A DNA stretch of 32,000 bases from Peristeroidobacter agariperforans (GTDB taxonomy: Bacteria; Pseudomonadota; Gammaproteobacteria; Steroidobacterales; Steroidobacteraceae): contig NZ_RYFW01000001.1 of assembly GCF_004138335.1 (NCBI RefSeq), positions 2,469,244-2,501,243 on the forward strand, in the 5' to 3' direction. The position numbers and the translations under genes are program-made. Positions 5,265-30,103 of this stretch are shown piece after piece. The notes under the pieces are model-generated. The model had not been told where the DNA came from. It ran no database searches and worked only from the letters and a program-made list of their open reading frames with translations. Every line of letters starts with the position of its first letter. Position 1 is the first letter of the stretch.

Positions 5265-5284
5265 TTCGCCGAAAATTCGGCGAA
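5265..5284. promoter_or_regulatory. 20-bp palindrome upstream of alpA (candidate operator)
   Basis: TTCGCCGAA-aa-TTCGGCGAA, a perfect 9-bp inverted repeat ~95 bp upstream of the alpA start. The equivalent site in copy B (10745..10764, TTCGCGGAA-aa-TTCGGCGTA) is imperfect. Confidence 0.3.
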
Positions 5285-8691: not shown

Positions 8692-8785
8692 CCTGTGGTG
8701 GCACCCCGGAGCGGTGGTTTGAAAACCCGCAAATCGAGGCTGGCACCCACGAATTTGAGGTGACACCCCAGGAGCGAGGTGGCTT
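8692..8785 (+). promoter_or_regulatory. conserved integrase leader, copy B
   Basis: GGCACCCCGGAGCGG...GGCACCCACGAATTTGAGGTGACACCCCAGGAG, colinear with 3212..3302. Confidence 0.3.
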
Positions 8786-10649: not shown

Positions 10650-11045
10650 GATCGTTACTCCTGATGTGATTGCGATGATCAACGGGGGCGACGTTCCACC
10701 CATGCACAGCATTCCTCAGTGGTCAGGAAAAGCCCAGGGGGAGTTTCGCGGAAAATTCGGCGTATTGGATCGGCATTTGGCTCGAGTTTCGCCGCCTTTG
10801 TACAGGCGTAGTTCAGCTTGGGGACCATTCACCCGAACAAGATCATTCCCCATCCGCCAGGGAATGTCAGGCGGAGAAATTGACGAGAATTGATAAAAAC
10901 AGAGGGTGTGTTAGCTCCGTCGGAGTGCGATTGCAAGGGCTCAGGTGAGTGTCGCGACAGCGGTCCTTTCGGGGCCGGGTGCCATCGAGGTGGCCGGAAG
11001 CAGCAGGCGGTGTGTTCGATTCGACGGGATTCGATCCGAATCGGC

Positions 11046-11882
11046 TCAATCGGGATTGGACGCCGCGGCGGCGGAGTCCCTGTCGATGAATTGCGCAGCG
11101 TCGGGAAAAATCTGGTTGATGATCTCCGCCACCAGGCGTCGTGCGCTCAGCGATTGGTTATCCAGCGCGGTTGTGCCGTGCGCGTGCTCGTTTCTCAGAA
11201 AAGGAATGTTCTTGAGAACCTGTCCGACATAGTCGTGATCGCGATCTTTGTCGTTGATCTCGAGCTGCGAGTCGTCGATCTCGAGTTCCGAGAGGCCCAA
11301 GGCCTTCATTTTATCAATTGTCTCAATGCTCCTCCGGGATTGCGCTCGAAGTCGGGCCTTTAGCCGCCAGGCGCTGAAGTTCTCGTTCTTCACAGCGCCG
11401 ATTTCAATCGCGAATCCCAGGAGTGCATGCAGCATCGGGCGGAACTTCTCCTTGTCCAGCGGCTGATACGGCTTGGCATTCTGCTGATCGCCTTTGATCT
11501 TGCTCTCGTACAATGATCGGCGCTTCCGCTCTTCCTGCGCGTAAAGGTCATCCTTGAAGCGAATCTTGAGCGCGAGCTCGAGACTCTGATATGCGTGACT
11601 TCGAGCGGCTGAATGAAACCGATACACAAACCACGAGAAGAGGTTCAGGTTCTTGGCGGTCTCGAAACTGGCAACGACCGCGGACGGAACTCCAGGGTGA
11701 AGGGTGACCTCGGCGACCGCCTGGTGCTGATCCTGCAGTGCTTTCGGCCGGAAACCCTGCGGTCCAAGAATCTCGAATCCTGAGCTGCGCGGATCAGCAC
11801 CGAAACGTTCTTGGGTGAGCGGAGAAAATCGGGATGGTCGGGCATGGCTACGTGGCTTGTGACTGCTTGAGTAGAGGTTCAT
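11046..11882 (-). CDS. HEPN-like / Abi-like protein (R-x4-H motif)
   Basis: 278 aa, predicted helical. The C-terminal PFLRNEHAHG fits the HEPN R-x4-6-H motif and the RN-x-x-AH signature seen in Abi_2/DUF4145-type HEPN families. No SD precedes ATG 11882, so the start is uncertain. Confidence 0.5.
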   Translation of the reverse strand: MNLYSSSHKPRSHARPSRFSPLTQERFGADPRSSGFEILGPQGFRPKALQDQHQAVAEVTLHPGVPSAVVASFETAKNLNLFSWFVYRFHSAARSHAYQSLELALKIRFKDDLYAQEERKRRSLYESKIKGDQQNAKPYQPLDKEKFRPMLHALLGFAIEIGAVKNENFSAWRLKARLRAQSRRSIETIDKMKALGLSELEIDDSQLEINDKDRDHDYVGQVLKNIPFLRNEHAHGTTALDNQSLSARRLVAEIINQIFPDAAQFIDRDSAAAASNPD

Positions 11883-13911: not shown

Positions 13912-13912
13912 G

Positions 13913-16144: not shown

Positions 16145-17411
16145 CCTCAGTCACCCTTTCGCTCGCGCCACCCGTGTCCTCATCTACCTCGATGACATCC
16201 AGCAACTCGCGCCAGCTCGAGTCGCGATGTTGTTCGAGCGTTGCAAGGAGGTTGAGGAAAGCCGTGATAGTGGTTCTCGGTGTTCGAAAGTAGGCTTCCC
16301 CGAGTCTCTTGGATGCATGCTGCATGAAGGCAACCAGGCCCTCATTTGGTACCAAGTAGTTCGCCTCCTCTCCGCTTGCATAGACATGTCTTAGTTTTTG
16401 AAGGAGAACAAAGAAGTCCTCGTTGGTAAGGCTAGCTAGCCGGAGCACCGGACCCGAGAAGTCTTGAATGCCAGCTCGGGCAGCGATCGTATTCTCGGCC
16501 AACCGTGATTGCAGCGCAGAGTAGCTGTAAAGGCCGCGGCGAGTGTCCAAGAGGAACTCGGGTGTGCCGCCTAGAATGAAGCCGAGCCCTTCTGCTGAGC
16601 CTTGCAGCGAATCATTCAGAATGCGAAGGATTTGCTCGTAGTTCGCATTGCGTGCTTGAGCATTGGCGAGTTTGTACAAGTTCACCATTTCATCGAGGCA
16701 GATGAGTAGTCCCGAGAATCCGGCAAGGCGCACGAATCGCGCTAGCAGCTTCAGCTGATCGTAGAATGCATCGTCGTCGACGATCGTCCTTACTCCCAGC
16801 GCGGATCGGGCATCTGTCTTGGTTGTGAATTCACCGCGAAGCCATCGAATGGCATCTGCTTTAAGTCGATCGTTCCCTTCCTCGAACCCTCGGCAGTAAG
16901 CGGCTACCACCTCGGCAAAGTCGTAGCCTCCTACCATCTCTGACAAATTGGCCAGCTTCTCGCGAATGATGTCTTCAGTGCTTTTGCCCGAGGTTTTCGA
17001 TTCTGTCTTCGCCTGCGCTACGAACTTCTCAACAACGCCCGGCAGTGCCCCGCCATCCGACTTGGTCCGCGTCGAGAAATTCTTCATCAGTTCCGCATAC
17101 AGCGAACGTGCTTGACCTCCGGATGCCTGCAGCCGACGGTCCGGATTTAGGTCGGCGTGCGCTGTAACAAGGCGCTTCTCCATGCCGATGGCGCGCACCA
17201 AGTTCAAGAAGAATGTCTTACCCGCACCGTACTCTCCGATCACAAGACGGAACCCTGTGCCTCCATCTGCTATACGTTCGATATCCCGCAGTAGCGTTTC
17301 GATTTCGCGGGCTCGTCCGACTTGGATGAGATGTTGGCCGGTTCGCGGGACGACGCCAGCGCGTAGAGCCTGGACAACGGTATCCCGCTCCTTCGATTTG
17401 ATCTTTGTCAT
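16116..17411 (-). CDS. sngB: DUF2791 / BrxD-like P-loop ATPase (Shango SngB-like)
   Basis: 431 aa. Walker A GEYGAGKT and Walker B LLICLDEM. Length and layout fit the BrxD/DUF2791 family. It overlaps the helicase gene by 29 nt. Confidence 0.85.
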   Translation of the reverse strand: MTKIKSKERDTVVQALRAGVVPRTGQHLIQVGRAREIETLLRDIERIADGGTGFRLVIGEYGAGKTFFLNLVRAIGMEKRLVTAHADLNPDRRLQASGGQARSLYAELMKNFSTRTKSDGGALPGVVEKFVAQAKTESKTSGKSTEDIIREKLANLSEMVGGYDFAEVVAAYCRGFEEGNDRLKADAIRWLRGEFTTKTDARSALGVRTIVDDDAFYDQLKLLARFVRLAGFSGLLICLDEMVNLYKLANAQARNANYEQILRILNDSLQGSAEGLGFILGGTPEFLLDTRRGLYSYSALQSRLAENTIAARAGIQDFSGPVLRLASLTNEDFFVLLQKLRHVYASGEEANYLVPNEGLVAFMQHASKRLGEAYFRTPRTTITAFLNLLATLEQHRDSSWRELLDVIEVDEDTGGASERVTEDDELASFKL

Positions 17412-19708
17412 GCGGCGAGTTTCTCCGAGACGTCGCGCGAAATCTCCACTGGGTCATCTCCTTCGATCAAAGCTTCATCGAATTGTTCGAAGGAGGCTTC
17501 ATTGATGCGCTCGAGCGCTCCGTCGAGCATTAGCTCCATATCGGCCGCCGCATCAACAAGATCTTGCCGCTGCCACGAGGATCGGGTCAGTAGTAGGCGA
17601 AGGAACGTGCTGTGCTCGGGATCCAGCCCTAAGAGAGTCGGCTCCGAGACAGGCTTCATTTCATCCTGCTCCTCTTCGGACTCAACTGAGGCTGGTGCGT
17701 CGATGAACACACTTGAAAGAAGAGTTGCGACTTGCTCGGTCTCGCGCTGGAGCGCCTCGATGCGCGCCATGTCCAGTGAAAGGCCGCCGGTCACGTGCCT
17801 GCTTGGAGTCGTAGTGGTGGCTGCAGTATTGGTTGCACTAGGGGCCCCCGCTGCTATATGCAGGTCGGTGTACAGTGCTTGCGCATCAACCTCGAGCGCC
17901 TTGTAGATGCGTTCGAGCAGACGCACCTCGGCGGGGGATACAGTGCCATCAACCTGCGCAAGGGTCGAAAGCAGGTGCGCAAGGGCGCGTCTCGCGTCTG
18001 CTGGGATAATGTCGAGTTTTCCCCTCAGTGCTGCGAGAGACGGCGGGGCCTCAATGGCCATTCGGAGTCGCGCTCTGAGTCGTTTGCGTTGGGGCTCGGA
18101 TAGCTGCACCCAACTATCGATCTGCTTCATCAGGAGACGCAATTCATTCGGGTGAGGATTTCCGTCTGCCGACGCCACACTGCATGCCAGATCAAGCGTG
18201 ACGGAGGCGGCTTGATAGGAGCCGGATTGCCGCAATGCTGCGTCTTCTCGCGCGCAGCGGAAGAGAATGATTTGATCGTCCGCCTTCGGAGTTCGCGCGC
18301 CGCCGAGAATGTCAGGTTCGATACCGACGTTGATCTCTTCGAGCGCGTGGGCGAGTGAGCGAAGACGATCGCGCGTCAGCGAGGCTGAGCCGCCGAGAGA
18401 GGAGACTAGCTCTCCGATAGTCATTACTCGCAGGCCGTCTTGAATCTTTTCGTTGAGGCCCTGCATAGCGGCGGCCGTAGCGTCCGGCCACAGTGCTCTT
18501 GGAAGTAATAGCGCTGCTTCGAGGGATGTCGCCTGAGCGGGGTTCTTCCCTACGAATCGCGAGTAGGGTGCTAAGGCACTAGCACATTTCTCGATCAAGG
18601 CTTCTAGCTTCTTGAGCGGTGCCACGACCGCAGTTATATCGGGAATGCCGTCTGTATCGACTGAGAGCTCACTTCCACCAAAGCCACTGGAGGCCGGCCG
18701 ATAACTCAACCGAATCTTCGTGCGATTGACGGGCAACTTGATGCCCTCTCCGAATTGCTCTGTATAGAGCTTCGCGAAAAGGGTCTCGAACTGCAGAGGG
18801 CACCGTTGAAGCGCTTTAGGAAGCTTTAGACGAGGATCGCTGAGTGCCCAGGCCACGGCCCACGATGTCGGGACGGGCTTTCCTCGCATTGCCATCCGGC
18901 CTAAGCCAAGCCGCAGTTCTACAGAGAAGTCTCTGGATGGCGGAGGTGGTTGGTCGCCAGGCGAGTCTCCGAGGCGGTGCGGTGCTAGGAACTCAATGAA
19001 CGACGATGCATATCGCCGAAATGAGCGATTCTGCCCATAGATCGCGATGAGTCGACGAACTTCGGCCTCGATCGCCGGTAGGTCTGCCTTGGCCGCCGGA
19101 TCTGACGCCGCGTCGACGAGGGCCCGTCTCTCCAGGCCGTAGAAAAAGAGGAAGACGTAGCCGATGTCTGCTGTCGGATCGCTTCGGCCGGTCGCCAGCC
19201 ACTCAATATATGCTCGGCGTGCGGAATCGGAGATGGCTGTGTAGCTTGGCCAATAGTCCATCTGTCGCGTGGCAAGTTCCGGCACATCAGCTGACAGTGG
19301 GTAGCGTGGATCGATGAGGGCAGGGTCGACCTGTCCGTTGGCTGCACGCAGATCAGATCCCAGATACAGCATGCCGCCTCGGACCGTAGTTCCGGCAATG
19401 GTCGTTGCCTGGTTCGCGGGAATCCAACAAGCTGGAATCGCGCGTCCCTTTGGTGGGTGGGGCGCCGGGCGGGTGCCACGGTACGTTTGTAGTGCGTCGA
19501 GCCGCATTGGGGCGTCGGGGGCATAGCCCTGAGATTGTGACGAGGAGGAGCTTTTGCTCTTGGAAATGAGCCAAAAAATTAGGGCTGCGGCGGCTACGAT
19601 TCCTATGACTACCCAGAGTTCTTTAGGAATTGTGGCAATCGCCAAGACAATCGCGCCGACGACGACCGTTGCGGCTCCCCCTGAGTCGCCTTTTCTTCTT
19701 CGTGCCAT
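17408..19708 (-). CDS. sngA: membrane-anchored TerB-N / TerB / TerB-C domain protein (Shango SngA-like)
   Basis: 766 aa. Two N-terminal hydrophobic segments (VVVGAIVLAIATI, VVIGIVAAAALIFWLI). TerB-N-like block WIPANQ...GGMLYLG...YWPSY...YIEWLATGR...YVFLFFYGLERR. Central TerB-like block DLACSVASADGNPHPNELRLL. TerB-C-like tail LLLTRSSWQRQDL...LMLDGALERINEASFE. Its stop overlaps the ATPase start (ATGA 17408..17411). Confidence 0.9.
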   Translation of the reverse strand: MARRRKGDSGGAATVVVGAIVLAIATIPKELWVVIGIVAAAALIFWLISKSKSSSSSQSQGYAPDAPMRLDALQTYRGTRPAPHPPKGRAIPACWIPANQATTIAGTTVRGGMLYLGSDLRAANGQVDPALIDPRYPLSADVPELATRQMDYWPSYTAISDSARRAYIEWLATGRSDPTADIGYVFLFFYGLERRALVDAASDPAAKADLPAIEAEVRRLIAIYGQNRSFRRYASSFIEFLAPHRLGDSPGDQPPPPSRDFSVELRLGLGRMAMRGKPVPTSWAVAWALSDPRLKLPKALQRCPLQFETLFAKLYTEQFGEGIKLPVNRTKIRLSYRPASSGFGGSELSVDTDGIPDITAVVAPLKKLEALIEKCASALAPYSRFVGKNPAQATSLEAALLLPRALWPDATAAAMQGLNEKIQDGLRVMTIGELVSSLGGSASLTRDRLRSLAHALEEINVGIEPDILGGARTPKADDQIILFRCAREDAALRQSGSYQAASVTLDLACSVASADGNPHPNELRLLMKQIDSWVQLSEPQRKRLRARLRMAIEAPPSLAALRGKLDIIPADARRALAHLLSTLAQVDGTVSPAEVRLLERIYKALEVDAQALYTDLHIAAGAPSATNTAATTTTPSRHVTGGLSLDMARIEALQRETEQVATLLSSVFIDAPASVESEEEQDEMKPVSEPTLLGLDPEHSTFLRLLLTRSSWQRQDLVDAAADMELMLDGALERINEASFEQFDEALIEGDDPVEISRDVSEKLAA

Positions 19709-20194: not shown

Positions 20195-20989
20195 ATGTCG
20201 AAGCGACGTGAATCACTGGCAGACGTGCTTTTGGTGCTCCCGTGGTGGATCAGTGTGGTTGTCGCCGCAACCGTATATGCCTTGTTTGCGTTTGCTTTGC
20301 CTCACTATTTCGCAGGCGAGCAGAACATGGCCGGCATCGGCATGGTGTCGAAGAATAGTGCTGCACTCTTCGCAGGATTGTTTTTGCTCATCGGCCTGCT
20401 CAGCTTCATCCGAGCTCTCGTCATCAAGCGGAAGTTCAACGATCTCGCGTGCCTCGAACAGGTGCGGCAGCTTTCCTGGCGCCAGTTCGAATCGATCGTT
20501 GGCGAGGCATTCCGCCGCCGCGGCTATGTAGTCATCGAGAATGCAGTGGATGGCCAGGATGGCGGTATTGATCTGGTGCTCCGAAAGGACGGCGCGAAGT
20601 ACTACGTACAATGCAAGCAGTGGAAACAAGCGAAAGTCGGCGTAAGGCCGATTCGGGAGCTCTACGGTGTGATCGCGGCCAGCGATGCTTCCGGTGGGTT
20701 CTTCGTTGTCTCGGGTGAGTATACGAATGAAGCGCGTGATTTTGCGCGCAAATCCGAAATTGAACTGATCGACGGTCCGGCACTAGCTGAAATGATCGCG
20801 CTGGCCCGCGAGCCAGAACCTTTCATGGACCCAACGAGACGCAGGCGGGAGTCTCCCACTGTGGATCCCGCTTGCGCGCTATGCGGAGGCGCTATGGTGT
20901 TAAGAAAGGCGACACGAGGGCCTCATGCTGGCCTCTCATTCTGGGGCTGCGGTTCGTATCCGCGATGTCGCGGGACGAAACCGGCGTGA
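20195..20989 (+). CDS. membrane-anchored Mrr-type restriction endonuclease domain protein with C-terminal topoisomerase-type zinc ribbon
   Basis: 264 aa, with AGAGGGG 7 nt upstream of the ATG. Two TM segments (VLLVLPWWISVVVAATVYALFAFAL, ALFAGLFLLIGLLSFIRALVI). Mrr_cat-like core FESIVGEAFRRRGY...DGGIDLVL...YYVQCKQW (D...D/E-x-K type). C-terminus CALCGGAMVLR...FWGCGSYPRC (C4 zinc ribbon). Confidence 0.85.
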   Translation: MSKRRESLADVLLVLPWWISVVVAATVYALFAFALPHYFAGEQNMAGIGMVSKNSAALFAGLFLLIGLLSFIRALVIKRKFNDLACLEQVRQLSWRQFESIVGEAFRRRGYVVIENAVDGQDGGIDLVLRKDGAKYYVQCKQWKQAKVGVRPIRELYGVIAASDASGGFFVVSGEYTNEARDFARKSEIELIDGPALAEMIALAREPEPFMDPTRRRRESPTVDPACALCGGAMVLRKATRGPHAGLSFWGCGSYPRCRGTKPA

Positions 20990-21181
20990 GCACCCAGTGA
21001 ACTGGTCAACGGGTCATGCCGGCTCGTGCATTACATAAAAGGTGTCTGCTGCGTCGCGATGTTCTCCAGCATTTCACTCCGGTCGTTAGAAATGTTGCGG
21101 CTGTCATTGACTCCCAGCGACTTGTGAGTAAGCTTTACAAGCGCCGGAATATCAGAAAAACATTTGCACCAGGGAGTGACC

Positions 21182-21475
21182 ATGGGCGAACAGAAGAAAA
21201 GAGCGTTTCTAACCTCCACGCTGGCACTTGCTGCCGCAATCCTTGTTTCGCAGTCACCGGCCGGAGCTGCCGCTGATCCAAAGGCGCAGTTGACCCCGAT
21301 CGTGGCGGAGCAGCCCCAAGCAAAAGATTTTGTCATCGAGCCCGCTTCAGGCACGGATTCCGTGATGACAGCGCACCGCTCGCATTCATCTCATCAGTCG
21401 CACTCGTCTCACGCATCCCACGAGTCGCACGCATCCCACAGCTCACACTCTTCGCATCAGTCATACGCGGGTTAA
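21182..21475 (+). CDS. hxsA: His-Xaa-Ser repeat precursor protein with Sec-type signal peptide
   Basis: Internal ATG 21182 with GGGAG 6 nt upstream. MGEQKKRAFLTSTLALAAAILVSQSPAGAAA, then a C-terminal run HRS-HSS-HQS-HSS-HAS-HES-HAS-HSS-HSS-HQS-YAG. Confidence 0.8.
   Translation: MGEQKKRAFLTSTLALAAAILVSQSPAGAAADPKAQLTPIVAEQPQAKDFVIEPASGTDSVMTAHRSHSSHQSHSSHASHESHASHSSHSSHQSYAG
21374..21463 (+). repeat. coding tandem repeat: 10 x His-Xaa-Ser
   Basis: 30 consecutive codons with H at every third position and S two positions later. Codons vary (cac/cat; tcg/tca/tct/tcc/agc), so the repeat is conserved at the peptide level rather than the DNA level. Confidence 0.95.
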
Positions 21476-21518
21476 TCGAGCACGGCCGGGAGTCAACTGT
21501 GCGTGGGACGGAGCCTGC

Positions 21519-21812
21519 ATGCTGAGCATCGAGTTTGATCGAGCTATCTACCCTGTAGAGGTGCTTCAGCGGGCTGCTTTGAAGTTCACGGACGTATGTA
21601 GCTTCAACTTCCGGCTTGCCGAGGCCAAGATCGCTGTGGAGATCGCGCCTCTGAATGACTCATACGCCCTACGCGCGGACGATTTCGAAGGCAGGTACAG
21701 GAATGAGGTGCTAGATCAGCACCTCAGAGCGATAGTTGCCAAAGAAACGGAGAATGAGCGCAACTTGATTCTCGCTCACGCATTCTCCAACTCCAAATTG
21801 ATCTCAGCCTAG
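21519..21812 (+). CDS. hxsD: HxsD-like small protein
   Basis: 97 aa. RNEVLDQHLRAIVAKETENERNLILAHAF resembles the signature block after which the HxsD family model was named (LLNDYxLRE). Position between hxsA and hxsB fits. The stop abuts the next start (TAGATG). Confidence 0.7.
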   Translation: MLSIEFDRAIYPVEVLQRAALKFTDVCSFNFRLAEAKIAVEIAPLNDSYALRADDFEGRYRNEVLDQHLRAIVAKETENERNLILAHAFSNSKLISA

Positions 21813-23285
21813 ATGGCTCTCGCGAAGCGATTCTCAGCTGTCGAAACATTTCGGGCTGTGGAGATGGCGGGGTACCGCCTATTGCCCCTCAGGTTCACCG
21901 CTCTCGATCAAGAGCGATATGTCATTTCAAACATGGTCGGAGAGTATCTGGTAGTCAAGCGCGACCAGCTCAACGACCTGATCCACCACCGGGTGCCGCA
22001 GGGCTCAGATCTGTACGATGAGTTCAAGAGCCGCCATTTCATACGAGATGCGGACTCTGATGTAGCCCTCGATCTGCTCGCGTTGAAGTACCGGACAAAG
22101 CTGGCGCGAGTGTCGCAGTTTACGTCGCTGCACATGTTTGTGGTGACGCTGCGTTGTGACTACACGTGCGCGTACTGCCAGGTCTCGCGGCAGACCGAGG
22201 ACCGCTCTGCTTACGATATGAGCGACGACACTGCAGCCGCTGCGGTCGAAATGACATTTCGTAGCCCGGCGCCCGCGATCAAGATTGAGTTCCAGGGCGG
22301 CGAGCCGCTGCTGGCCTTCGATCGGATCAAGTCAGTCGTGGAAATGGCTGAGGCGCGCAACGTGCAGGAGAAGCGGAACCTGCAGTTCGTCATTGCTTCG
22401 AACCTGAGCTTGATTTCCGACGAGATCCTGGACTACTGCGATCGGCACGGCATCTATCTCAGTACGTCTCTTGATGGGCCGTCGAGTCTTCACGATCGCA
22501 ATCGCCCAAAACCAGGGAAGAATGGGTACGAGCTGACAATCCGTGGGATCAAAAGAATTCAAGATCGGTTGGGCCGAGATCGCGTGTCGGCGCTGATGAC
22601 GACGACCGAAAGAAGCCTCCCGTATGTCAAGGAAATCATCGACGAGTATGTGCGGCTGGGCTTCCGTAGCATTTTCCTCCGGCCACTGAGTCCCTACGGA
22701 TTTGCTGTCACAACGGGCCAGGTCGATAAATACGACGCGGAGCGGTGGCTGTCTTTCTATCGAGAGGGGCTGAGCTACATCCTCGAGCTGAACAAGCATG
22801 GCTACTCGATCCGCGAGACTTATGCGGCGATCATTCTGAGAAAGATGCTGACGCCGCAGAACCCTGGCTATGTTGACCTTCAGTCACCGACAGGTCTGGG
22901 AATAAGCGCGATCGTCTATAACTACGACGGAGCGGTCTACGCAAGTGATGAGTCGCGAATGCTGGCAGAGATGGGCGATCAGTCGTTCCGACTCGGCCGG
23001 CTGGGCGTGAACTCATACGAAGAGATGATGCTGTCGACGACATTGCTTGACGCGCTGGAGGCGGGAGTGGCGGAAGGTGCGCCCCTGTGCTCCGAGTGCG
23101 CATTCGTGCCGTACTGTGGCGCGGATCCTGTCTATCACCATGCAACACAGCGCGACATGATGGGAAATAAGGCTCTCAGCGGGTACTGCGCACGCAATAT
23201 GGCCATATTTCGACATCTGATTGCATTGATGGAGGACAGCCTGGCCGATAAGGCGATACTGCTTAGGTGGGCTTTCGATTGTTGA
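21813..23285 (+). CDS. hxsB: radical SAM (SPASM-type) maturase HxsB-like
   Basis: 490 aa. LRCDYTCAYCQ (CxxxCxxC), FQGGEPLL, and a C-terminal Cys-rich auxiliary-cluster region CSECAFVPYCGADP...GYCA. Confidence 0.9.
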   Translation: MALAKRFSAVETFRAVEMAGYRLLPLRFTALDQERYVISNMVGEYLVVKRDQLNDLIHHRVPQGSDLYDEFKSRHFIRDADSDVALDLLALKYRTKLARVSQFTSLHMFVVTLRCDYTCAYCQVSRQTEDRSAYDMSDDTAAAAVEMTFRSPAPAIKIEFQGGEPLLAFDRIKSVVEMAEARNVQEKRNLQFVIASNLSLISDEILDYCDRHGIYLSTSLDGPSSLHDRNRPKPGKNGYELTIRGIKRIQDRLGRDRVSALMTTTERSLPYVKEIIDEYVRLGFRSIFLRPLSPYGFAVTTGQVDKYDAERWLSFYREGLSYILELNKHGYSIRETYAAIILRKMLTPQNPGYVDLQSPTGLGISAIVYNYDGAVYASDESRMLAEMGDQSFRLGRLGVNSYEEMMLSTTLLDALEAGVAEGAPLCSECAFVPYCGADPVYHHATQRDMMGNKALSGYCARNMAIFRHLIALMEDSLADKAILLRWAFDC

Positions 23286-24487
23286 CGCTCTCCGCAAAGC
23301 AGAACATTCCGCTGGGGTTGATGCGGCCGGAGCGCGTACGATCCTTTCGGGTCACAACCGATGCGGAGCTCCCGGCGGTGCTGCGAGAGAATGCGGCTCT
23401 GCTTCTGCCCGTTGATTGGGCTTCCATTCCAAAGGGTTTCGGTGTTGTTCTTGTCAGGCCTGATAGCCCATTCGCTTCGGATCACCAATGCGGCGCGCTG
23501 CTAATTGATCCGTCGCTGCTCTACTTGGGGGATGGCGATGTTATCCGGCTGACGCCCGATCTCCATATACGTGTGGTTTATCGGCGAAACGCGAGCACCA
23601 ACAGCCTGCTGGTCACCGAGCGGTGCAATAGCCTTTGCTTGATGTGCTCTCAGCCGCCCAGGGACGTGGATGATTCTCACCTCGTCGATGAGCTGCTGGA
23701 TGCCATTCCGCTATTTGATCCTGGTACTCGAGAGGTAGGAATCACCGGCGGTGAGCCAACCCTACTGGGCGCCAGGCTGTTTGACTTGGTGCGCTCTCTG
23801 AAGTCGAACCTCCCTCATACCGGCGTTCACATCCTTTCCAACGGAAGGAACTTCAAGCAGCTGAGCCTCGCGCAGGCGCTCGCAGCGTTGCATCATCCGG
23901 ATTTGATGATCGGCATACCGCTCTACTCAGATATCGCGTCGTTGCACGACTATGTGGTGCAGGCCGACGGTGCCTTCGACGAGACCGTCCGCGGGATTCT
24001 CAACCTGAAACGGTGCGGCGTTCGCGTTGAGGTTCGGGTGGTCGTTCACGCAGCTACCTACGCGAGATTGCCGGCGCTTGCCCGATTTATCGCGCGCAAT
24101 CTGCAGTTTGTGGACCAGGTGGCGCTCATGGGTCTGGAGATGACGGGCTTCACTAAGGCCAATCTATCCGAGTTGTGGATAGATCCGGTGGACTATCAAG
24201 CTGAGCTGGCCGATGCAGTACACACGTTACACGCTGCGCGCGTCAAAGCTCTCATCTACAACCATCAGCTCTGCTTGCTTGATCCCGAGATTCGGAGGTT
24301 CGCGGTTCGCAGCATCTCTGATTGGAAGAACGAGTATATGCCGGAGTGCGACGGGTGCGACTTGCGACAGGAGTGTGGGGGCTTCTTTAGCTCTGCGAAG
24401 CTCAAGTACAGTGCGCATATCAAACCGCAGAGGCGGCGGGATGATGCCCTTGCTGGTGGTCTGGCGTCCATAGAGAGCTTCACATAG
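23267..24487 (+). CDS. hxsC: radical SAM maturase HxsC-like
   Basis: 406 aa. ERCNSLCLMCSQP (CxxxCxxC), ITGGEPTL, C-terminal PECDGCDLRQECGG. The track start 23267 is GTG. Alternative starts are TTG 23279/23282 (overlapping the hxsB stop) or ATG 23321. Confidence 0.85.
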   Translation: MGFRLLTLSAKQNIPLGLMRPERVRSFRVTTDAELPAVLRENAALLLPVDWASIPKGFGVVLVRPDSPFASDHQCGALLIDPSLLYLGDGDVIRLTPDLHIRVVYRRNASTNSLLVTERCNSLCLMCSQPPRDVDDSHLVDELLDAIPLFDPGTREVGITGGEPTLLGARLFDLVRSLKSNLPHTGVHILSNGRNFKQLSLAQALAALHHPDLMIGIPLYSDIASLHDYVVQADGAFDETVRGILNLKRCGVRVEVRVVVHAATYARLPALARFIARNLQFVDQVALMGLEMTGFTKANLSELWIDPVDYQAELADAVHTLHAARVKALIYNHQLCLLDPEIRRFAVRSISDWKNEYMPECDGCDLRQECGGFFSSAKLKYSAHIKPQRRRDDALAGGLASIESFT

Positions 24488-24577
24488 GTCGCCGGGAGTC
24501 TCAGGTGCGTTTGCTGGGCACCGGTGTTTCGGATCGATTAGTAGGCGTGGAGGCCCCCAGGCGCTCAGAGAGGATGT

Positions 24578-24886
24578 GTGACAGAACAGAAGCAGCTCGA
24601 GATCACTCGCATCCAAGCGAAACAGGCCGTGCTCGTTGCTGTCATTACTGCTGCGTCCTCGATAGCGGTGACCCTCCTGGCGGAACGCTCCCTTGACCGA
24701 GTCCCGGACCCCGCCGCGCCGATCGCAGCACAAGCACCAAGAGACACGGGAAGTGCGCCGCTGATATTTGTGGCGTCCGTGGATCCGGGGAAGCGAGGAA
24801 TTCCGTGGAGGAGTGTAGGCGCAAAGCGGGCGAGGAAATGCATGCGCGGCGAGGCAAGATCGTTGCTACCGGCAGCACTTGGGTAG
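24578..24886 (+). CDS. hypothetical small membrane-anchored protein, possibly frameshifted (continues in another frame to 25020)
   Basis: GTG start with GAGAGG 5 nt upstream. MTEQKQLEITRIQAKQAVLVAVITAASSIAVTLLA suggests one TM helix. ORF 24805..25020 in a different frame reads protein-like (IVATGSTWVAMEWREFGIMVMCHDEAHSAAVIVAGNDSK). No family recognised. Confidence 0.3.
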   Translation: MTEQKQLEITRIQAKQAVLVAVITAASSIAVTLLAERSLDRVPDPAAPIAAQAPRDTGSAPLIFVASVDPGKRGIPWRSVGAKRARKCMRGEARSLLPAALG

Positions 24887-25122
24887 CAATGGAATGGCGT
24901 GAGTTTGGGATAATGGTGATGTGCCACGATGAGGCGCACAGCGCAGCGGTGATTGTGGCTGGAAACGACAGCAAGACTAACGGTGATCTAGCAATCTCCC
25001 TGCGAGAAGCCGTGCTTTAACAATGAAACAGGTGGCTTTTCAGGGCGTGGCGCGAACAGCAGAGTAGCGCGCGGCGCAGCCGCTATATCGCTCCGTAACA
25101 AACAGAGAGTTGCGTAACACGG

Positions 25123-26070
25123 ATGCAGAAGCACGATGCAACTTCCTACTTCGTTCCATCGGACAAGCTTGTGGAGCTCCGAAGGATCATCGAACTGTGG
25201 AAAGAGATGGGCTTTCTCGGTCGTATCTTCAAGATGCGCCTAGTGGTGGACGCCAATATAATTCTGCGAGATGTACGTTGGTTGGCAACTAAACGCAAGT
25301 CGCCGGTGGCTCGTACCGCGTTGCTGGAAGTTGTGGAGTCCGGCACGTTGGAGGTTTATGTGCCAAGCCAGCTGTATGAAGAGGTCGGTCGGCACATCGA
25401 CCGATTCTCAGCTGAGGAAGATATCGACCGAAGTCGAATGCTGGAAGGCTGGGCCGCTTACCAAAAGCATCTGAACGTGCTGGATCCTGATGAGGACCGA
25501 ATTCGGCCATATAGGGCTGGGGTAGATCCTGACGACGCTGTGTTTCTTGCTCTGGCGGAAGCCGTTGGCGCGAAAGGAGTTCTAAGTAACGATCGGCACA
25601 TCTCTCAAATGGGCGGCAAGAGGATATCCATCGACTGCGTGTTCTCATTAAGAGATTACTCTCGCGCAGCGGCAATTGAGTGGAATATAAAGGTTGGGGG
25701 AATCACGCTGGGCTTGCTCGGCTTCCACGTGATCGGCCAGATAATTTCTGGAGTTAAAAATCTGGGTCAATCGATCGCTAGAGCGCCAGATTGGGTGAAG
25801 GCTTCGATCGTCATGGGTGCAATCCTTCTCATGTTGCACCCCGGCGCCCGAAAGAAAATCAGCTCAGGTCTAGAGCTCGCCTTCGGTGCTTTGCGTTCCT
25901 CTGCGCCCCCAATCTTTAGCATGATTATGGATGCCGCAGCACACGCTCATCGAGAGGCGGGTATTGCGCAAGAGAGTTTGGACAAGGTTTTTAAGCAGCT
26001 GGGGGAGGGGCCAATGAGCGCCACCAGCGAAATGGTGGAAGTCTCGCGCGCAGGATTTCCACCGAATTGA
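25123..26070 (+). CDS. PIN-domain protein with C-terminal transmembrane segments
   Basis: 315 aa. PIN-type acidic residues in RLVVDANIIL, LLEVVESG, DPDDAVFLALAEAVGAKGVLSNDRHI. Then two hydrophobic helices: GGITLGLLGFHVIGQIISGV and WVKASIVMGAILLMLHPGA. Confidence 0.7.
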   Translation: MQKHDATSYFVPSDKLVELRRIIELWKEMGFLGRIFKMRLVVDANIILRDVRWLATKRKSPVARTALLEVVESGTLEVYVPSQLYEEVGRHIDRFSAEEDIDRSRMLEGWAAYQKHLNVLDPDEDRIRPYRAGVDPDDAVFLALAEAVGAKGVLSNDRHISQMGGKRISIDCVFSLRDYSRAAAIEWNIKVGGITLGLLGFHVIGQIISGVKNLGQSIARAPDWVKASIVMGAILLMLHPGARKKISSGLELAFGALRSSAPPIFSMIMDAAAHAHREAGIAQESLDKVFKQLGEGPMSATSEMVEVSRAGFPPN

Positions 26071-26142
26071 ATCACAGTCGACTCATGGCAGTTAGCGCGG
26101 ATTCGGAAAAGAATTCCTCTCTGACGCGGCCGGAACTCCTCA

Positions 26143-26178
26143 ACGTACGCCTTGATTGATGCGTCAAATGGCGTACGT
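26143..26178. terminator. hairpin between convergent PIN and NYN genes
   Basis: ACGTACGCC-N18-GGCGTACGT (9-bp perfect arms, inner TTGA/TCAA pairing). It overlaps the last codons of the minus-strand gene. No clear T-tract. Confidence 0.3.
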
Positions 26179-26745
26179 AAGTGCCCCATCCAGTTCGCGC
26201 ACATGAGCTTCCTCGAATAGCCGTTGCACTAGGGCCAATCGGACGTCGTCGCCTAGTTTGGGAAACCAGGATTTAACTTTATTCGCGAGCCCCTTGCGCC
26301 TGGTCGGGCGAGCTTTCTCCTTGGTCAGGAGAGATATCAATCGCCCGAAATTATCCTGCTCGGGTTCCGGAGGGATCGCCGCTCTGGGGAATGCTGACCT
26401 CAGTGAGTTTGCTCGACGACACCTATGCCCGAGTTCGACGAGATGTCGAATCAATGGATCGAAGCCAGTGTCCTTAGAGAGCACCGTGCAGTCGGAAGTA
26501 GGTCGATGGGTCAGCTCTAGCCCGAGATAATACGCAATATGGAAGTCGAGTGCGTTCGGTCCGTTGCCTGAAATCCTGATCCATGCGAGCCGTGTCCCTA
26601 GTGGCTGTGCCTGTATGACCAACTCATCCGGCAGCTTCGTCTGCGCCGCGCCGTAGAACACTAGCACGCGAACATCGCCGGGAAGTGCGGAGAGATGGAA
26701 CTTCTGAACATTCTCCAGATCGATCAGGAGGACTCGATCACCCAT
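26164..26745 (-). CDS. NYN / PIN-like (LabA-type) nuclease-domain protein
   Basis: 193 aa. VLLIDLENV, GPNALDFHIAYYLG and VLSKDTGFDPLIRHLVELG match the three acidic blocks of NYN/LabA-like domains (D-x-E-N ... A-x-D ... S-x-D-x-x-F). Confidence 0.65.
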   Translation of the reverse strand: MGDRVLLIDLENVQKFHLSALPGDVRVLVFYGAAQTKLPDELVIQAQPLGTRLAWIRISGNGPNALDFHIAYYLGLELTHRPTSDCTVLSKDTGFDPLIRHLVELGHRCRRANSLRSAFPRAAIPPEPEQDNFGRLISLLTKEKARPTRRKGLANKVKSWFPKLGDDVRLALVQRLFEEAHVRELDGALTYAI

Positions 26746-27028: not shown

Positions 27029-27826
27029 ATGTTCCCGGTCAACGAAGTTCTTCAGGGTGATTGCACTCGCGTACTGCGGCGGTTGCCGGATTCTTTCGTC
27101 GATCTCGTGGTAACCGATCCGCCCTACGGTGTCCGCTATCAAGACAGCAAAGGTCGGACGATTGCGAACGACGATGATCCGAATCGCATTCTGGGTGCAT
27201 TTACAGATCTGTACCGAGTTCTGAAGCCCAACAGCATCTGCATCTCCTTCTACGGTTGGGGCCAGGTGGATGCATTCTTCCGAGCCTGGCGCCGCGCTGG
27301 GTTTCGGCCGATCGGTCACATCGTTTGGGCCAAGGACTACGCGTCGCGCACACGCTATCTCCACTACCGCCATGAACAGGCGTACGTGCTGGCCAAGGGA
27401 TCCCCAAAGGTGCCGGGGCAGCCAATTGATGACATCCAGCCCTGGGTGTACTCGGGCAATCAGGATCATCCGACGCAGAAGGCGGTGAAGATTCTGACGC
27501 CGCTCATCGAAGCCTTCTCGCAGCCTGGGCAACTGGTCCTCGATCCCTTCGCTGGCTCCGGTAGCACCCTAGTGGCCGCTGCCTTGAATGGTCGACGCTA
27601 CCTTGGCGTTGAGCTGGAGCGCGATTACTGCCGCGTAGCCCGCGAGCGGCTTGCGAATGTGCAACGTCGGTTGTCTCACTCCCAAGGAGTGACGGCGGCA
27701 CTTGGGCACGACAACCGGGAACTACCACCGCTCGAGGTTGATGCTTTTATCCGGTGGCTGCGCGGGCAAGGCCAAGAGGGCGTCGCTCGATTCGTCGAAC
27801 GTGCACGCGCGGAGTATGGCTTGTGA
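27029..27826 (+). CDS. beta-class DNA methyltransferase (DPPY; probably N6-adenine)
   Basis: 265 aa, with GGAGA 8 nt upstream. N-terminus VLQGDCTRVLRRLPDSFVDLVVTDPPYG (motif IV), followed later by VLDPFAGSGSTLVAA (motif I). This IV-before-I order defines the beta class. Confidence 0.9.
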   Translation: MFPVNEVLQGDCTRVLRRLPDSFVDLVVTDPPYGVRYQDSKGRTIANDDDPNRILGAFTDLYRVLKPNSICISFYGWGQVDAFFRAWRRAGFRPIGHIVWAKDYASRTRYLHYRHEQAYVLAKGSPKVPGQPIDDIQPWVYSGNQDHPTQKAVKILTPLIEAFSQPGQLVLDPFAGSGSTLVAAALNGRRYLGVELERDYCRVARERLANVQRRLSHSQGVTAALGHDNRELPPLEVDAFIRWLRGQGQEGVARFVERARAEYGL

Positions 27827-28523
27827 CGGATAGGTGGCTATCCCAAACGGTCGCGTGCCGTCGCAAGTTGTCGCGCGACCGTTTTATATGTTGGCGTCGT
27901 CTTCACCATCCACGTCTCTGCCGGCAGATCAGATTGCGTGCTCCAGGCGAGTCGTCTCGCGCGCTGCTTCGATAGTCTTCCGACGCCGTGACGAATAAGG
28001 ACGGTGAGATCGGGTGAGCTTGTGGGAAAGCGAGACAGAGCCGCCTGCGGACGGCTTCCTGCCGCCGCCCAGCCCACAACTGGACCCGTAGAGATGGGCA
28101 TCGCCTGGACAGCGCCCGTCGGCCACGATGCGAGAACGAGTCCGCAGCTGTCTTCGTGACTGGGCAGGGTCTCTCCCTCGCGCGAGCGGCTCCTAGTGTG
28201 GCCGGTGATGCAGGCATCCGGCGGGGTGGTGGGCCAAGATCGAGAGGAGCGTTCTGGGTGATCGATACACAGGCGTCGCGTCGTCTGCATTTGGATGCAA
28301 GACAGTACGCCCACTAACGGCCGAGCACACCCGGCGATATATTCGAGACCTCATGCGCACCGAAGTCTCAGTCTCACCATAAAGCACACGCGCCCGAGGC
28401 CAAAGATCACTGACCTCAATAAAAATAGCAAATATCGCCAACGGTCGAACTCTTCCTCCTCGAACTGCCACGCACTCCGCTGGAATCAGTGACTGCGAAT
28501 GTTTGAGTTTCGATCAACAAAGC

Positions 28524-28543
28524 GGCCAATTGCAGGATTGGCC
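28524..28543. promoter_or_regulatory. candidate oriT hairpin upstream of mobC
   Basis: GGCCAAT-tgcagg-ATTGGCC (7-bp perfect inverted repeat), ~30 bp upstream of the mobC start and preceded by an AT-rich patch (CAATAAAAATAGCAAATAT). Confidence 0.3.
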
Positions 28544-28572
28544 TGCGGCTGCTTTTGTTTACACTCTGGTGC

Positions 28573-29124
28573 ATGGGAATCACGCACGTCATCGCTGCTC
28601 GCGTCTCCCCGGAGTCGAAAGCCCGGTTCCGCAGCCTTGCGGAACAGCAGCAGATGACCGAGTCGGCGTTGCTGAAACGGCTCGTCGATATGGCCGTACA
28701 CACCGGCGGCGTGAACGATGCCGATGTTCTGAAGTCGCCAGAGCGACGCCTGCGAGGCGCTCGGCTGTGTGTCCGACTGCACCCGGACGATCAGTTGTTA
28801 CTGGCAGAAAGGGCAGCAGCTCGGCAGATGCCGGCGGCTACGTACGTCTCCGTCCTGGTGCGCGCCCATCTGCGGACGCTGTCGCCGCTTCCCAAGGCGG
28901 AGCTGATGGAGCTCAAGCGCTCTGTCGCCGAGCTCAGTGCGATCGGTAGAAACCTCAACCAGCTGGCTCGTCTGGCACACCAGCGACCGGGCTCGGTCTC
29001 CCCCGGCGGGCAGGTTGTGCAAATGATGCTCAAGGTATGCGAAGCGATGCGCGCTCACATCAAGGGGCTGATCAAAGCCAACACCAGGAGTTGGGAGGCA
29101 GGCCATGCGAACGATCAGACTTGA
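28573..29124 (+). CDS. mobC: MobC-family relaxosome accessory protein
   Basis: SVAELSAIGRNLNQLARLAHQ is the MobC signature (L-x-x-I-G-x-N-L-N-Q-x-A-R). N-terminal RHH-like segments are present. The start is either 28555 or 28573. Confidence 0.8.
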   Translation: MGITHVIAARVSPESKARFRSLAEQQQMTESALLKRLVDMAVHTGGVNDADVLKSPERRLRGARLCVRLHPDDQLLLAERAAARQMPAATYVSVLVRAHLRTLSPLPKAELMELKRSVAELSAIGRNLNQLARLAHQRPGSVSPGGQVVQMMLKVCEAMRAHIKGLIKANTRSWEAGHANDQT

Positions 29125-30103
29125 GGCCGGTCGGCCGATCCTCGACATCATCAGCTATGGCCGTGCAGGTCCGGGCGCTCGGATTGCGCTGACGCCCGCT
29201 CAGATCGCACAGATCCACCGGACGGTCTCGCGAGCGCCCGAAGTGGTGGTCAAGGTCACGGGCGGTGGGGGTTCGACCACGGGTCGAGGCGTCAATGCTC
29301 ACTTCAGCTACATTGGCAGGCGAGGCGAGCTGGAGATCGAGACCGACGACGGCCAGCGCTTGACCGGTCGGGGAGTAGGTCGGCATCTGGTCGACGATTG
29401 GGACTTGGATCTAGAGGAGGATCGCAAGCGGCTCGACCTGTTCGCGATGAATCGGCGAAAGCCGCCGAAGCTTGTTCACAGGCTGATCTTCTCCATGCCG
29501 GCGGGCACGCCGCCACAGAAGGTACTAGCAGCCGTCCGCGACTTCGCTCGTGAGGAGTTTGGACTCAAACATCGATACGCGATGGTGTTGCATACGGATG
29601 AGCCGCACCCGCATGTGCATGTGGTCGTAAAAGCGCTCGGCGAAGATGGCGTACGGCTCAATATTCGCAAGGCGACTCTGCGACATTGGAGGCAGGAGTT
29701 TGCATGTCAGCTTCGAGCGCATGGCGTTGAGGCGAACGCCACGGAACGACATGTTCGTGGGCAAAGTCGGACGCCGAAGTTGGACTCCATTTTCAGAGCA
29801 GCTCAGAGGGGCGAGTCGTCGCACATGGCCGCGCGACTGGGCGATGTCGTGCGCGAGCTGAAAGCAGGATCCCTAGATAGATCCGGTGCCGCTCAGCTCC
29901 AGCGATCCAGAATTGAAGTCCTGCGCGGATGGAAAACCGTGCGGAATCTTTTGGTCGTCGAGGGGCAGCATCAGCTTGCCAACGATGTTGCGCGATTCGT
30001 CAACCAAATGCCGCCCGCGCGCACTGAGAAGGAGAGGTTGGCGCATGAGCTAATGGCGCTAGTGGGTCAGCAGCGTGAGAAGGATAGATCGCTCCTTCGC
30101 TAG
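29105..30103 (+). CDS. relaxase / mobilisation nuclease (MobA/VirD2-type)
   Basis: 332 aa, with GGAGG upstream. EVVVKVTGGG...AHFSYIGRRG (catalytic Tyr region) and HRYAMVLHTDEPHPHVHVVVKA (H-x-D-x(2-3)-H-x-H metal triad). It overlaps mobC by 20 nt. Confidence 0.85.
   Translation: MRTIRLEAGRPILDIISYGRAGPGARIALTPAQIAQIHRTVSRAPEVVVKVTGGGGSTTGRGVNAHFSYIGRRGELEIETDDGQRLTGRGVGRHLVDDWDLDLEEDRKRLDLFAMNRRKPPKLVHRLIFSMPAGTPPQKVLAAVRDFAREEFGLKHRYAMVLHTDEPHPHVHVVVKALGEDGVRLNIRKATLRHWRQEFACQLRAHGVEANATERHVRGQSRTPKLDSIFRAAQRGESSHMAARLGDVVRELKAGSLDRSGAAQLQRSRIEVLRGWKTVRNLLVVEGQHQLANDVARFVNQMPPARTEKERLAHELMALVGQQREKDRSLLR

Follow-up and report, generated by a model that had tools for sequence, protein, structure and literature searches.

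The His-Xaa-Ser (HXS) proteins, HxsA to HxsD, remained a bioinformatic orphan family from 2011 until the antiphage paper of 2026. In that work, the hxsD-B-C-A operon of Escherichia coli MEM was cloned and found to be a broad antiphage system, which restricts 110 of 113 coliphages by blocking phage DNA entry, without abortive infection or loss of adsorption, and for which all four genes are needed (Li et al., Nat Commun 2026, PMC13128918; preprint 10.64898/2026.01.06.697848). The processed form of E. coli HxsA (a 214-aa protein whose signal peptide spans residues 1-22 and which has five HxS repeats plus a peptidoglycan-binding domain) was located in the periplasm, and DNA binding by periplasmic HxsA was reported; a +8 Da modification was mapped to SHRSS, the last repeat, and residues 23-47, each of the repeats and the peptidoglycan-binding region were all found to be needed for defence (PMC13128918). 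Furthermore, HxsC and HxsD form a complex, and cysteine mutants of either radical S-adenosylmethionine (rSAM) enzyme (HxsB C98/C101 and C399/C402, HxsC C105/C108 and C342/C345; function abolished or reduced), as well as the HxsD substitutions Y23A or D61A/R65A, impaired processing and abolished defence (PMC13128918). The model put forward by Li et al., in which anchored basic repeats electrostatically retain the incoming DNA, is accompanied by a list of non-electrostatic alternatives and by escape mutations of T7, which affect the ejectosome proteins gp15 and gp16; in their survey, the order D-B-C-A was present in 99.6% of the systems, Pseudomonadota accounted for 99.7%, and the effector was described as peptidoglycan-anchored (PMC13128918). 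Full-length E. coli HxsA resisted in-vitro reconstitution, and our literature search returned no further paper on HXS function beyond that of Li et al. (a 2022 article in the Journal of Biological Chemistry mentions HxsB merely as an annotated cluster). Here we describe an hxsA-D-B-C cassette found in a 32,000-nt stretch of the Peristeroidobacter agariperforans genome (contig NZ_RYFW01000001.1, positions 2,469,244 to 2,501,243; the whole stretch is hereafter called the window), and we argue that it is probably a functional HXS antiphage cassette of a minimal-effector subtype, in which HxsA would be matured in the cytoplasm via a motif placed ahead of its repeats, exported, and directed against phage DNA in the periplasm. 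As the antiphage role of HXS is already known, what is new here is the variant: a divergent HxsB, the order A-D-B-C, and an anchorless, mildly acidic effector.

Conserved maturation proteins of the cassette

The complete four-gene cluster recognised in the initial annotation (made by a model from the letters of the window) was recovered with all of its sequence features: the four open reading frames (ORFs) are intact and tightly packed in the order A-D-B-C (Table 1), the hxsD stop codon TAG abuts the hxsB ATG at 21810-21815, hxsB and hxsC overlap by 19 nt (an overlap that is identical in the relative L037), and the cysteine motifs of both rSAM enzymes are in place. For comparison with the characterised system we used the operon of the Klebsiella plasmid pKN-LS6 (L035) as a proxy, since its cysteine numbering equals that of the published E. 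coli mutants. The window locus has in common with E. coli/Klebsiella HXS the four components (with HxsB, HxsC and HxsD falling in the same NCBIfam equivalogs), the rSAM and auxiliary cysteine motifs, the D/R motif of HxsD, the carriage on mobile DNA, and, in HxsA, a signal region, a D-[LF]-V-I-x-P motif (HDLVIAP in Klebsiella) and tandem HxS repeats.

In HxsB, the rSAM motif CDYTCAYC (C115/C119/C122) is accompanied by a C-terminal CSECAFVPYC, and C115/C119/C122 together with C426/C429/C435/C459 are shared with the Klebsiella and Leptospira homologues; in HxsC, CNSLCLMC (C120/C124/C127) is paired with a second motif, CDGCDLRQEC, and C120/C124/C127 plus C336/C361/C364/C370 are conserved in the homologues. 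Both enzymes combine CX3CX2C with a C-terminal CX2CX5C, and the cysteines tested in E. coli are kept in the window (C119/C122 and C426/C429 of HxsB, C124/C127 and C361/C364 of HxsC). The only Pfam domains detected in HxsB and HxsC were Radical_SAM and Fer4_12; the Pfam SPASM model had no match in HxsB, and only its four C-terminal cysteines are conserved among distant homologues. The term ‘SPASM-like’, which the initial annotation had applied to this C-terminus, thus appears fair with respect to the four cysteines, while a full two-cluster SPASM domain is beyond the data. The nearest solved structures were CteB (5WGG; E 8e-14) for HxsB and BlsE for HxsC, with none for HxsD, and no solved relative of any Hxs protein was found outside the rSAM core; the model of the anaerobic sulfatase maturase (anSME) aligns to HxsB residues 112-474.

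In the third maturation protein, HxsD, residues E63, L65, D66, L69 and R70 are invariant among 46 homologues (the motif reads E-V-L-D-Q-H-L-R, as compared to the LLNDYxLRE type), and D66 and R70 are the counterparts of the functionally tested D61 and R65. Its AlphaFold2 model is confident (predicted local distance difference test score 89.2) and combines a beta-alpha-beta-beta unit with a helix of 42 residues, on which the invariant motifs are located. A Foldseek search with this model gave nothing significant (top match Pcc1, E 0.033), and HxsD is therefore not detectably a recognition element of the PqqD-like kind that serves ribosomally synthesised and post-translationally modified peptides (RiPPs).

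The ratios of nonsynonymous to synonymous substitutions (dN/dS), calculated against the relatives L037 and L038, were respectively 0.07 and 0.11 for hxsA, 0.06 and 0.07 for hxsD, 0.05 and 0.04 for hxsB, and 0.07 and 0.08 for hxsC; all four hxs genes are under strong purifying selection. These values bear directly on the reading of the locus as a decaying remnant, whose short HxsA would be a canonical one truncated ahead of its anchor, a reading that could draw on the failure of HxsA at every cut-off of the available HxsA models and on the missing canonical C-terminal two-thirds. The hxsA ratios and the four intact ORFs speak against it, as does the recurrence of the short architecture in about 70 sequences from many phyla (many of which pass the HxsA2 model). 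We consider such a remnant most improbable, and pseudogene status was rejected, since selection and conservation together all but refute it.

The HxsA precursor and the minimal-effector subtype

HxsA was found to be what the initial annotation had described, i.e. a 97-aa protein with a signal peptide and ten HxS triplets written in varied codons. A GGAG ribosome-binding site is located 5 nt 5' of the ATG at 21182 and the closest homologues are called from the same Met, on which grounds we take this ATG as the start (the in-frame alternative TTG at 21164 was dropped for the same reasons). The signal region is composed of an n-region with K5, K6 and R7, a hydrophobic core (STLALAAAILV, residues 12-22; mean Kyte-Doolittle hydropathy 2.35) and a cleavage-type motif A-G-A/A-A-A (residues 27-31), from which the putative cleavage site was positioned; as HxsA is devoid of cysteine, it is not a lipoprotein. 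The element [KR]x0-2F[LI] is present in the signal region of 63 of the 70 short HxsAs that we compiled. In the window (21182-21215), the signal start of the [K/R]-x-F-L-x-P type resembles the hydrophobic half of the twin-arginine translocation (Tat) motif, and is unusually conserved for a Sec signal. Export by the Tat route was rejected in spite of this resemblance, given that a twin arginine (R-R-x-F-[LI]) occurs in none of the 70 short HxsAs and that the window HxsA has K-K-R-A-F-L in its place. The conserved start may be linked to the non-canonical export/cleavage reported for E. coli HxsA.

Between the signal region and the repeats, both short and canonical HxsAs carry a motif (consensus D-[F/L]-[V/F]-[I/L]-x-[P/K/R]-A) that lies 10-16 residues ahead of the first His. 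The N-terminal 73 aa of the window HxsA are 38% identical to canonical HxsA, with no alignment beyond them, and the shared motif falls inside residues 23-47 of the E. coli protein, i.e. the segment reported as essential (PMC13128918). Judging by its conservation and fixed spacing, this pre-repeat motif is likely to be the element recognised by the maturases.

Only Y-A-G separates the repeat array from the stop codon. By chance, 8e-21 runs of ten HxS units would be expected in the six frames of the window, which contain no other run of at least three. The His codons (CAC seven times, CAT three times) and those of the fixed Ser (TCG four times; TCT, TCC and TCA twice each) are mixed, and the only signal from Tandem Repeats Finder, of 9 nt, is weak (score 30, 70% matches), which argues that the array is maintained at the protein level; a recent origin by DNA slippage was rejected on the same evidence. 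Close relatives of the window HxsA have 9 or 10 repeats: such a difference in unit number is seen when P0004, P0005 and P0007 (~77-91% identical to the window HxsA over the aligned region) are compared with it, and implies that in-frame gains or losses of 9 nt take place despite the mixed codons.

We identified 44 database relatives of the short HxsA (81-136 aa, nearly all unnamed). Furthermore, in at least 20 of 33 GTDB loci with an HxsB 46-63% identical to that of the window, a short, repeat-terminated HxsA is encoded directly 5' of hxsD-B-C (examples come from Pseudomonas, Alphaproteobacteria, Burkholderiaceae, Methylophilaceae and Acidobacteriota); the order A-D-B-C prevails in most of the 33 loci, which are scattered throughout Pseudomonadota, Acidobacteriota, Myxococcota, Verrucomicrobiota, Planctomycetota and Actinomycetota. 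The 70 short HxsAs have a median length of 94 aa and a median of 7 repeats (maximum 12), end 2-5 residues past the repeats, and hold at the X position mainly Ser (227) and Ala (100), followed by Glu (39), Gln (36) and Arg (34). The minimal effector is the norm among the relatives of the window HxsB, which come from at least seven phyla. At a wider scale, 582 proteins of a 50%-clustered library match HxsB at E <= 1e-30, and more than 100 HxsB clusters (50% identity) are at least as near to the window HxsB as is the characterised type.

The C-terminal module of HxsA varies between these loci: Azospirillum has PG_binding_1 (in a D-B-C-A operon), Verrucomicrobiota carry other tails, and Myxococcota have PEGA, while the short proteins have none. 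This variation points to a modular effector of which the window holds the minimal form, with the signal peptide, motif and repeat module being the sole universal part. The Myxococcota HxsAs (L012, L013, L016, L022, L023 and L033) are longer, with the PEGA domain (PF08308, 18-31 bits) placed after the repeats; it exceeded the gathering cut-off in 2 of the 4 tested, and the frame of L012 (7578-9599) spans 673 aa from stop to stop.

Several further observations were made on the related loci. Two tandem short hxsA genes precede one hxsD-B-C set in an Acidobacteriota metagenome-assembled genome (MAG; L020, 8917-9577) and in an alphaproteobacterial one (L032, 8980-9686), which implies that some systems have multiple precursors. 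One Verrucomicrobiota contig (JBEEHT010000141.1) has two separate HXS systems (L024 and L025) about 37 kb apart, and in each of them an HxsA of ~207 aa is encoded on the opposite strand and has an unassigned C-terminal domain. On the plasmid NZ_CP091425.1 of Methylobacter sp. YRD-M1 (L034, 7388-7992), the short hxsA is named ‘hypothetical protein’ by RefSeq (Prokaryotic Genome Annotation Pipeline), and the gap before hxsB has no annotated hxsD; the PLSDB gene table is incomplete as well. A divergently transcribed gene for a class-I SAM methyltransferase of about 200 aa (Methyltransf_11/25/31), which may have an accessory function, is located just 5' of hxsA in several unrelated short-type loci (L040 3064-3657 on the minus strand, L042 582-1208 on the minus strand, a contig of JGI 3300056388, and two ORFs in alignment A1); the window has no such gene.

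Taken together, the conserved features suggest the following course of events. HxsA would be synthesised as a 97-aa precursor, whose D-F-V-I-x-P-A segment would be recognised in the cytoplasm by HxsC with HxsD, plus HxsB; the two rSAM enzymes would then install a covalent modification within the His-Xaa-Ser array, the N-terminal signal region would route the protein over the inner membrane, and the resulting peptide (~66 aa, rich in His and Ser) would halt phage DNA in the diderm periplasm, at or before the inner membrane. Conservation gives good support to the maturation half of this scheme; for the effector half, we extrapolate from an E. coli-type system that is 32% identical. That the rSAM enzymes act in the cytoplasm before export, and that the cluster may have a role in conflict (with phages or competitors), had both been suggested in the initial annotation, and the two suggestions match respectively the experiments on E. 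coli HXS and the antiphage activity of its operon; the accompanying statement that the role had not been established is outdated, as the role, the +8 Da shift and the periplasmic location are now published (PMC13128918).

Several lines of evidence weigh against an antiphage cassette that works as proposed. The assignment of the proteins to the Hxs families, which held for HxsB, HxsC and HxsD at the NCBI curated cut-offs (Table 1), failed for HxsA at all four NCBIfam HxsA models: HxsA4 NF038313, the best of the four, gave 41.5 bits (cut-off 55), HxsA TIGR03979 34.8 (121.65), HxsA3 NF038309 30.1 (65) and HxsA2 NF038296 30.3 (48), with the TIGR03979 match confined to profile positions 11-74 of 190 (Klebsiella HxsA reaches 162.8 bits with the same model). 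The identity to the Klebsiella proteins is 32% for HxsB and 37% for HxsC, and HxsD has no BLASTP match. A Pfam search of the window HxsA yielded no domain match, and thus no PG_binding_1, whereas this domain is present in the HxsAs of Klebsiella and Azospirillum and its mutation abolished defence in E. coli. The mature window peptide has a net charge of -3 (isoelectric point 6.35; X residues R, S, Q, S, A, E, A, S, S, Q), as compared to +4 to +8 (isoelectric point 9.4-10) for the canonical one, and its repeats are non-basic; the 70 short HxsAs have a median net charge of -3, and only 12 of them are net positive. The exact SHRSS of the mapped modification site is absent from the window HxsA, whose last repeat reads S-H-Q-S-Y-A-G, and no phenotype of any short-HxsA system is reported in the literature. 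The two types also differ in gene order (A-D-B-C vs D-B-C-A) and in the build of HxsA (97 aa with 10 repeats vs 211-214 aa with 5 repeats), the window protein having no Ser/Gly linker.

With anchor and positive charge missing, the action of the window effector cannot equal the E. coli mechanism. A rival explanation, which overlaps with the one that we favour, keeps the maturation machinery and the defence role and assigns to the effector another mode of action (e.g. as a metal-loaded His-rich peptide, as a periplasmic signal that diffuses, or by plugging or disturbing the phage ejection channel or an entry factor of the inner membrane). This rival draws on the C-terminal module being swappable or missing in HxsA, with the signal peptide, motif and repeats alone universal, on the mainly acidic or neutral character of the short class with its Ser or Ala at X, and on the gp15 and gp16 escape mutations of T7 and the non-electrostatic options listed by Li et al. 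(PMC13128918); it is countered by the DNA binding reported for periplasmic HxsA (PMC13128918), and by the fact that His could be partly protonated or that the modification could add charge. We regard this rival as a serious possibility, albeit a minority one. We only tentatively entertain the idea that, among the forms of the effector, the minimal HxsA is both the most widespread and the ancestral one, and that it acts otherwise than by peptidoglycan-anchored electrostatic capture of DNA. If true, PG_binding_1 and PEGA would be lineage-specific additions, the mechanism derived from E. coli would need revision, and the activity would reside in the rSAM-modified His/Ser array itself, e.g. as a metal-dependent or channel-targeting peptide.

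Mobility and genomic setting of the cassette

A blastn comparison showed the cassette (Table 1) to be the only window DNA common to both of its closest relatives, L037 and L038, and its boundaries are the same in the two although their neighbours are dissimilar. As compared to L037, the left edge lies 77 nt 5' of the ATG of hxsA; the right edge falls within the 3' end of hxsC, where we place a recombination junction because the last ~15 residues of HxsC diverge from those of L037. The cassette moves as a self-contained four-gene unit among the slots of integrase- and relaxase-borne defence islands. Directly 3' of it, a variable slot (24448-26171) holds sequence unique to the window, namely the last ~15 residues of HxsC, a 102-aa ORF (24578-24886, with one predicted membrane helix) and the PIN_3 gene (whose product has a hydrophobic C-terminal region); L037 has an unrelated 151-aa ORF in this place. 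The 102-aa membrane ORF and PIN_3 were rejected as a fifth cassette gene, as neither is common to L037 or L038. A promoter scan around the cassette found no promoter-like site, and terminator-like sites were at chance level.

Concerning related mobile DNA, a megablast of window positions 1-25000 against 72,556 plasmids gave no match, and a scan of viral contigs with HxsB returned no close relative; in PLSDB, HxsB relatives are present on 410 plasmids (326 typed as conjugative, 316 from Klebsiella), and two phage records were found in addition. On such grounds, the cassette could be thought to exclude other incoming DNA (conjugative plasmids, rival elements, or DNA taken up by transformation) to the benefit of its carrier element: it resides on a relaxase-bearing integrative element in the window and on conjugative or mobilisable ones elsewhere, and plasmids and other mobile elements were outside the tests of Li et al. 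(PMC13128918). However, conjugative DNA arrives through a type IV secretion channel and not through a phage tail, and the known phenotype of HXS is an anti-phage one, so that we hold this reading to be improbable.

The initial annotation had placed the cluster on a mobile defence island, between Mrr and PIN genes; this proved correct, and the island was found to hold in addition Shango, Old, AbiEi/AbiEii, a methylase and a relaxase (Table 1). The cassette is thus surrounded by the defence systems Shango, Old, AbiE, Mrr and MTase_II, by two integrases and by a relaxase.

Table 1. Coordinates of the HXS cassette, its parts and the neighbouring features (positions in the window)
Feature	Position	Strand	Remarks
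HXS cassette as mobile unit	21105-24447	+	blastn 82% to L037, 86% to L038
hxsA	21182-21475	+	ATG to TAA, 97 aa, minimal-type precursor/effector
HxsA signal peptide (putative)	21182-21274	+	~residues 1-29/31, opens with family-conserved K-K-R-A-F-L
HxsA pre-repeat motif D49-F-V-I-E-P-A55	21326-21346	+	fixed at -16 to -10 from first His
HxS repeats	21374-21463	+	residues 65-94, ten units: HRS HSS HQS HSS HAS HES HAS HSS HSS HQS
hxsD	21519-21812	+	97 aa, partner protein of HxsC; TIGR03976 55.2 bits (cut-off 50)
hxsB	21813-23285	+	radical-SAM maturase; TIGR03978 618.7 bits (cut-off 370), full-length 1-466/466
hxsC	23267-24487	+	GTG start, second radical-SAM maturase; TIGR03977 402.6 bits (cut-off 267.9), profile 3-291/292
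Integrases, tandem	3303-4649 and 8786-10132	+	448 aa each, 85% identical
AbiEi/AbiEii	5980-7478	+	Pfam; sole cargo of first element
Old-family ATPase/TOPRIM nuclease	12115-13941	-	PADLOC Old 220 bits; Pfam AAA_15, OLD-like_TOPRIM
Shango, complete	13913-19708	-	SngC 13913-16144, SngB 16116-17411, SngA 17408-19708
Mrr-type nuclease with Zn ribbon	20195-20989	+	Mrr_cat 118 bits; 5' neighbour of cassette
PIN_3 gene	25123-26070	+	Pfam; in variable slot
PIN7 gene	26164-26745	-	Pfam
Type II DNA methylase	27029-27826	+	Pfam; PADLOC MTase_II 281 bits
MobA/VirD2-type relaxase	29105-30103	+	Pfam

The 85% identity of the integrases, together with direct repeats at a spacing of 5.48 kb (3256-3595 vs 8738-9078 and 5221-5427 vs 10701-10905), points to two related elements inserted in tandem at one site, the second of which carries Old, Shango, Mrr, the HXS cassette, PIN_3, PIN7, the type II methylase and the MobA-type relaxase. 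No tRNA or Rfam match was found in the window, nor any short flanking direct repeat besides those of the tandem elements. The left edge of the window is chromosomal (with a gene for a DmpA aminopeptidase that is 100% identical to the one of Peristeroidobacter agariperforans; the host is a Peristeroidobacter-type diderm gammaproteobacterium of the Steroidobacterales), and the right end of the island is probably beyond the window. The Shango components were recognised by PADLOC (SngC 887 bits, SngB 597 bits, SngA 339 bits) and by the Pfam domains DEAD/Helicase_C, BrxC_BrxD and TerB_N/TerB/TerB_C; the system is documented in bioRxiv 10.1101/2022.05.11.491447 and in PMC10250203. The genes for SngA, SngB, SngC and Old (12115-19708) all read from the minus strand, with overlapping or directly adjoining ends. 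The Mrr product has weak PADLOC matches to mREase_IV and PDC-S02. Several ORFs of 130-280 aa with neither Pfam nor PADLOC match, which may add to the cargo of the island, lie at 10284-11882 and 27838-29124, i.e. between the second integrase and Old and between methylase and relaxase (e.g. 11046-11882 and 27838-28314, both on the minus strand).

In the relatives, the cassette of L037 has a TIR protein and an integrase fragment on one side and, on the other, the PIN7-methylase-relaxase block known from the window (the three genes are syntenic with those of the window, and 24448-26171, the PIN_3 region, is missing), and that of L038 follows AbiE and Mrr, which again adjoins the cassette, and precedes metabolic genes. 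Among more distant contigs with a short HxsA, L040 has Mrr (downstream of the cassette) and IS21, P0033 has AbiE, CBASS and HEPN, and another has a large helicase; the Methylobacter plasmid cassette has helicase, ATPase, thermonuclease and PDDEXK nuclease genes as neighbours. In a flank survey (Pfam on 223 flanking ORFs from 20 GTDB loci, with no background or control set), the recurrent genes were integrase, resolvase, relaxase, coupling protein, AbiEii and UmuDC, next to many metabolic genes, and TrwC, TrwB/TraG and relaxase were found among the cassette neighbours elsewhere. The survey is qualitatively consistent with mobility. Since the flanks are heterogeneous and the 20 loci lack a background set, we claim no statistical enrichment near defence genes, and this is a further point to be set against a defence role.

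The mixed flanks likewise bear on the reading of HxsA as a secreted or periplasmic, RiPP-like metal-binding peptide (metallophore or chaperone), which would ride mobile elements and have no part in defence; this is the housekeeping alternative named in the initial annotation. In its favour can be listed ten His within 30 positions, a net charge that fits cation binding, the many GTDB loci with metabolic neighbours (the genes downstream of the L038 cassette included) and the absence of HXS from PADLOC 2023; against it, the homologous E. coli operon is strongly antiphage and needs all four genes (PMC13128918), neither the window nor L037-L040 has a transporter, TonB receptor or metal regulator linked to the cassette, and the cassette recurs beside TIR, AbiE, Mrr, CBASS and Shango. 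We therefore deem a metal-handling peptide unlikely, and favour the antiphage cassette of minimal-effector subtype.

Comparison with known systems

The locus and its relatives reveal a large unstudied HXS branch, in which the effector is cut down to its repeat module and is non-basic, and which may be used to probe which parts of the published HXS mechanism generalise. Moreover, a mature peptide of ~66 aa with ten target repeats offers a smaller substrate for solving the radical chemistry. The branch also exposes an annotation gap: the short effectors are labelled ‘hypothetical protein’, and surveys led by HxsA miss effectors that score below all HxsA models. The closest described precursors are those of the NCBIfam families HxsA2, HxsA3 and HxsA4, which resemble the window HxsA in length (~80-100 aa), signal peptide, C-terminal HxS repeats and position 5' of hxsD-B-C. 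The HxsA2 model is passed at 70-111 bits by the short HxsAs of Pseudomonas, Burkholderiaceae, Methylophilaceae and Acidobacteriota; no HxsA model is passed by those of the close relatives of the window, the alphaproteobacterial MAG L001, the Methylobacter plasmid and Leptospira LE1, and the window motif DFVIEPA differs from the D-x-F-x-F-I-L-K typical of HxsA2.

The Leptospira phage/plasmid-prophage LE1 (KF114877; L036) shares with the window the order A-D-B-C, the carriage on a mobile element and a 99-aa HxsA without anchor (HxsB is 45% and HxsC 43% identical); its HxsA differs by basic repeats (HRS HSS HRS HSS HRS, net charge +3) that are followed by a 15-aa tail, and its HxsD has 127 aa. 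The rSAM/SPASM maturases of RiPPs and the like (CteB 5WGG, anaerobic sulfatase maturase, QhpD) have in common with HXS the rSAM core and, in HxsB, the C-terminal CX2CX5C; the HXS substrate, in contrast, has a signal peptide and no classical leader, is served by two paired rSAM enzymes plus HxsD, and yields a defence effector, whereas the products of those maturases are antibiotics or cofactors. Prokaryotic viperins (pVips) are likewise rSAM enzymes of antiphage defence (HxsC has a weak pVip match in PADLOC, 29 bits), but they produce chain-terminating nucleotides in the cytoplasm, whereas the HXS enzymes modify a protein that is later exported. Finally, the superinfection exclusion proteins Imm and Sp of phage T4 act, like HXS, at the envelope step of DNA entry (discussed in PMC13128918), and differ from it in being phage-encoded, narrow in spectrum, unrelated in sequence and in no need of enzymatic maturation.

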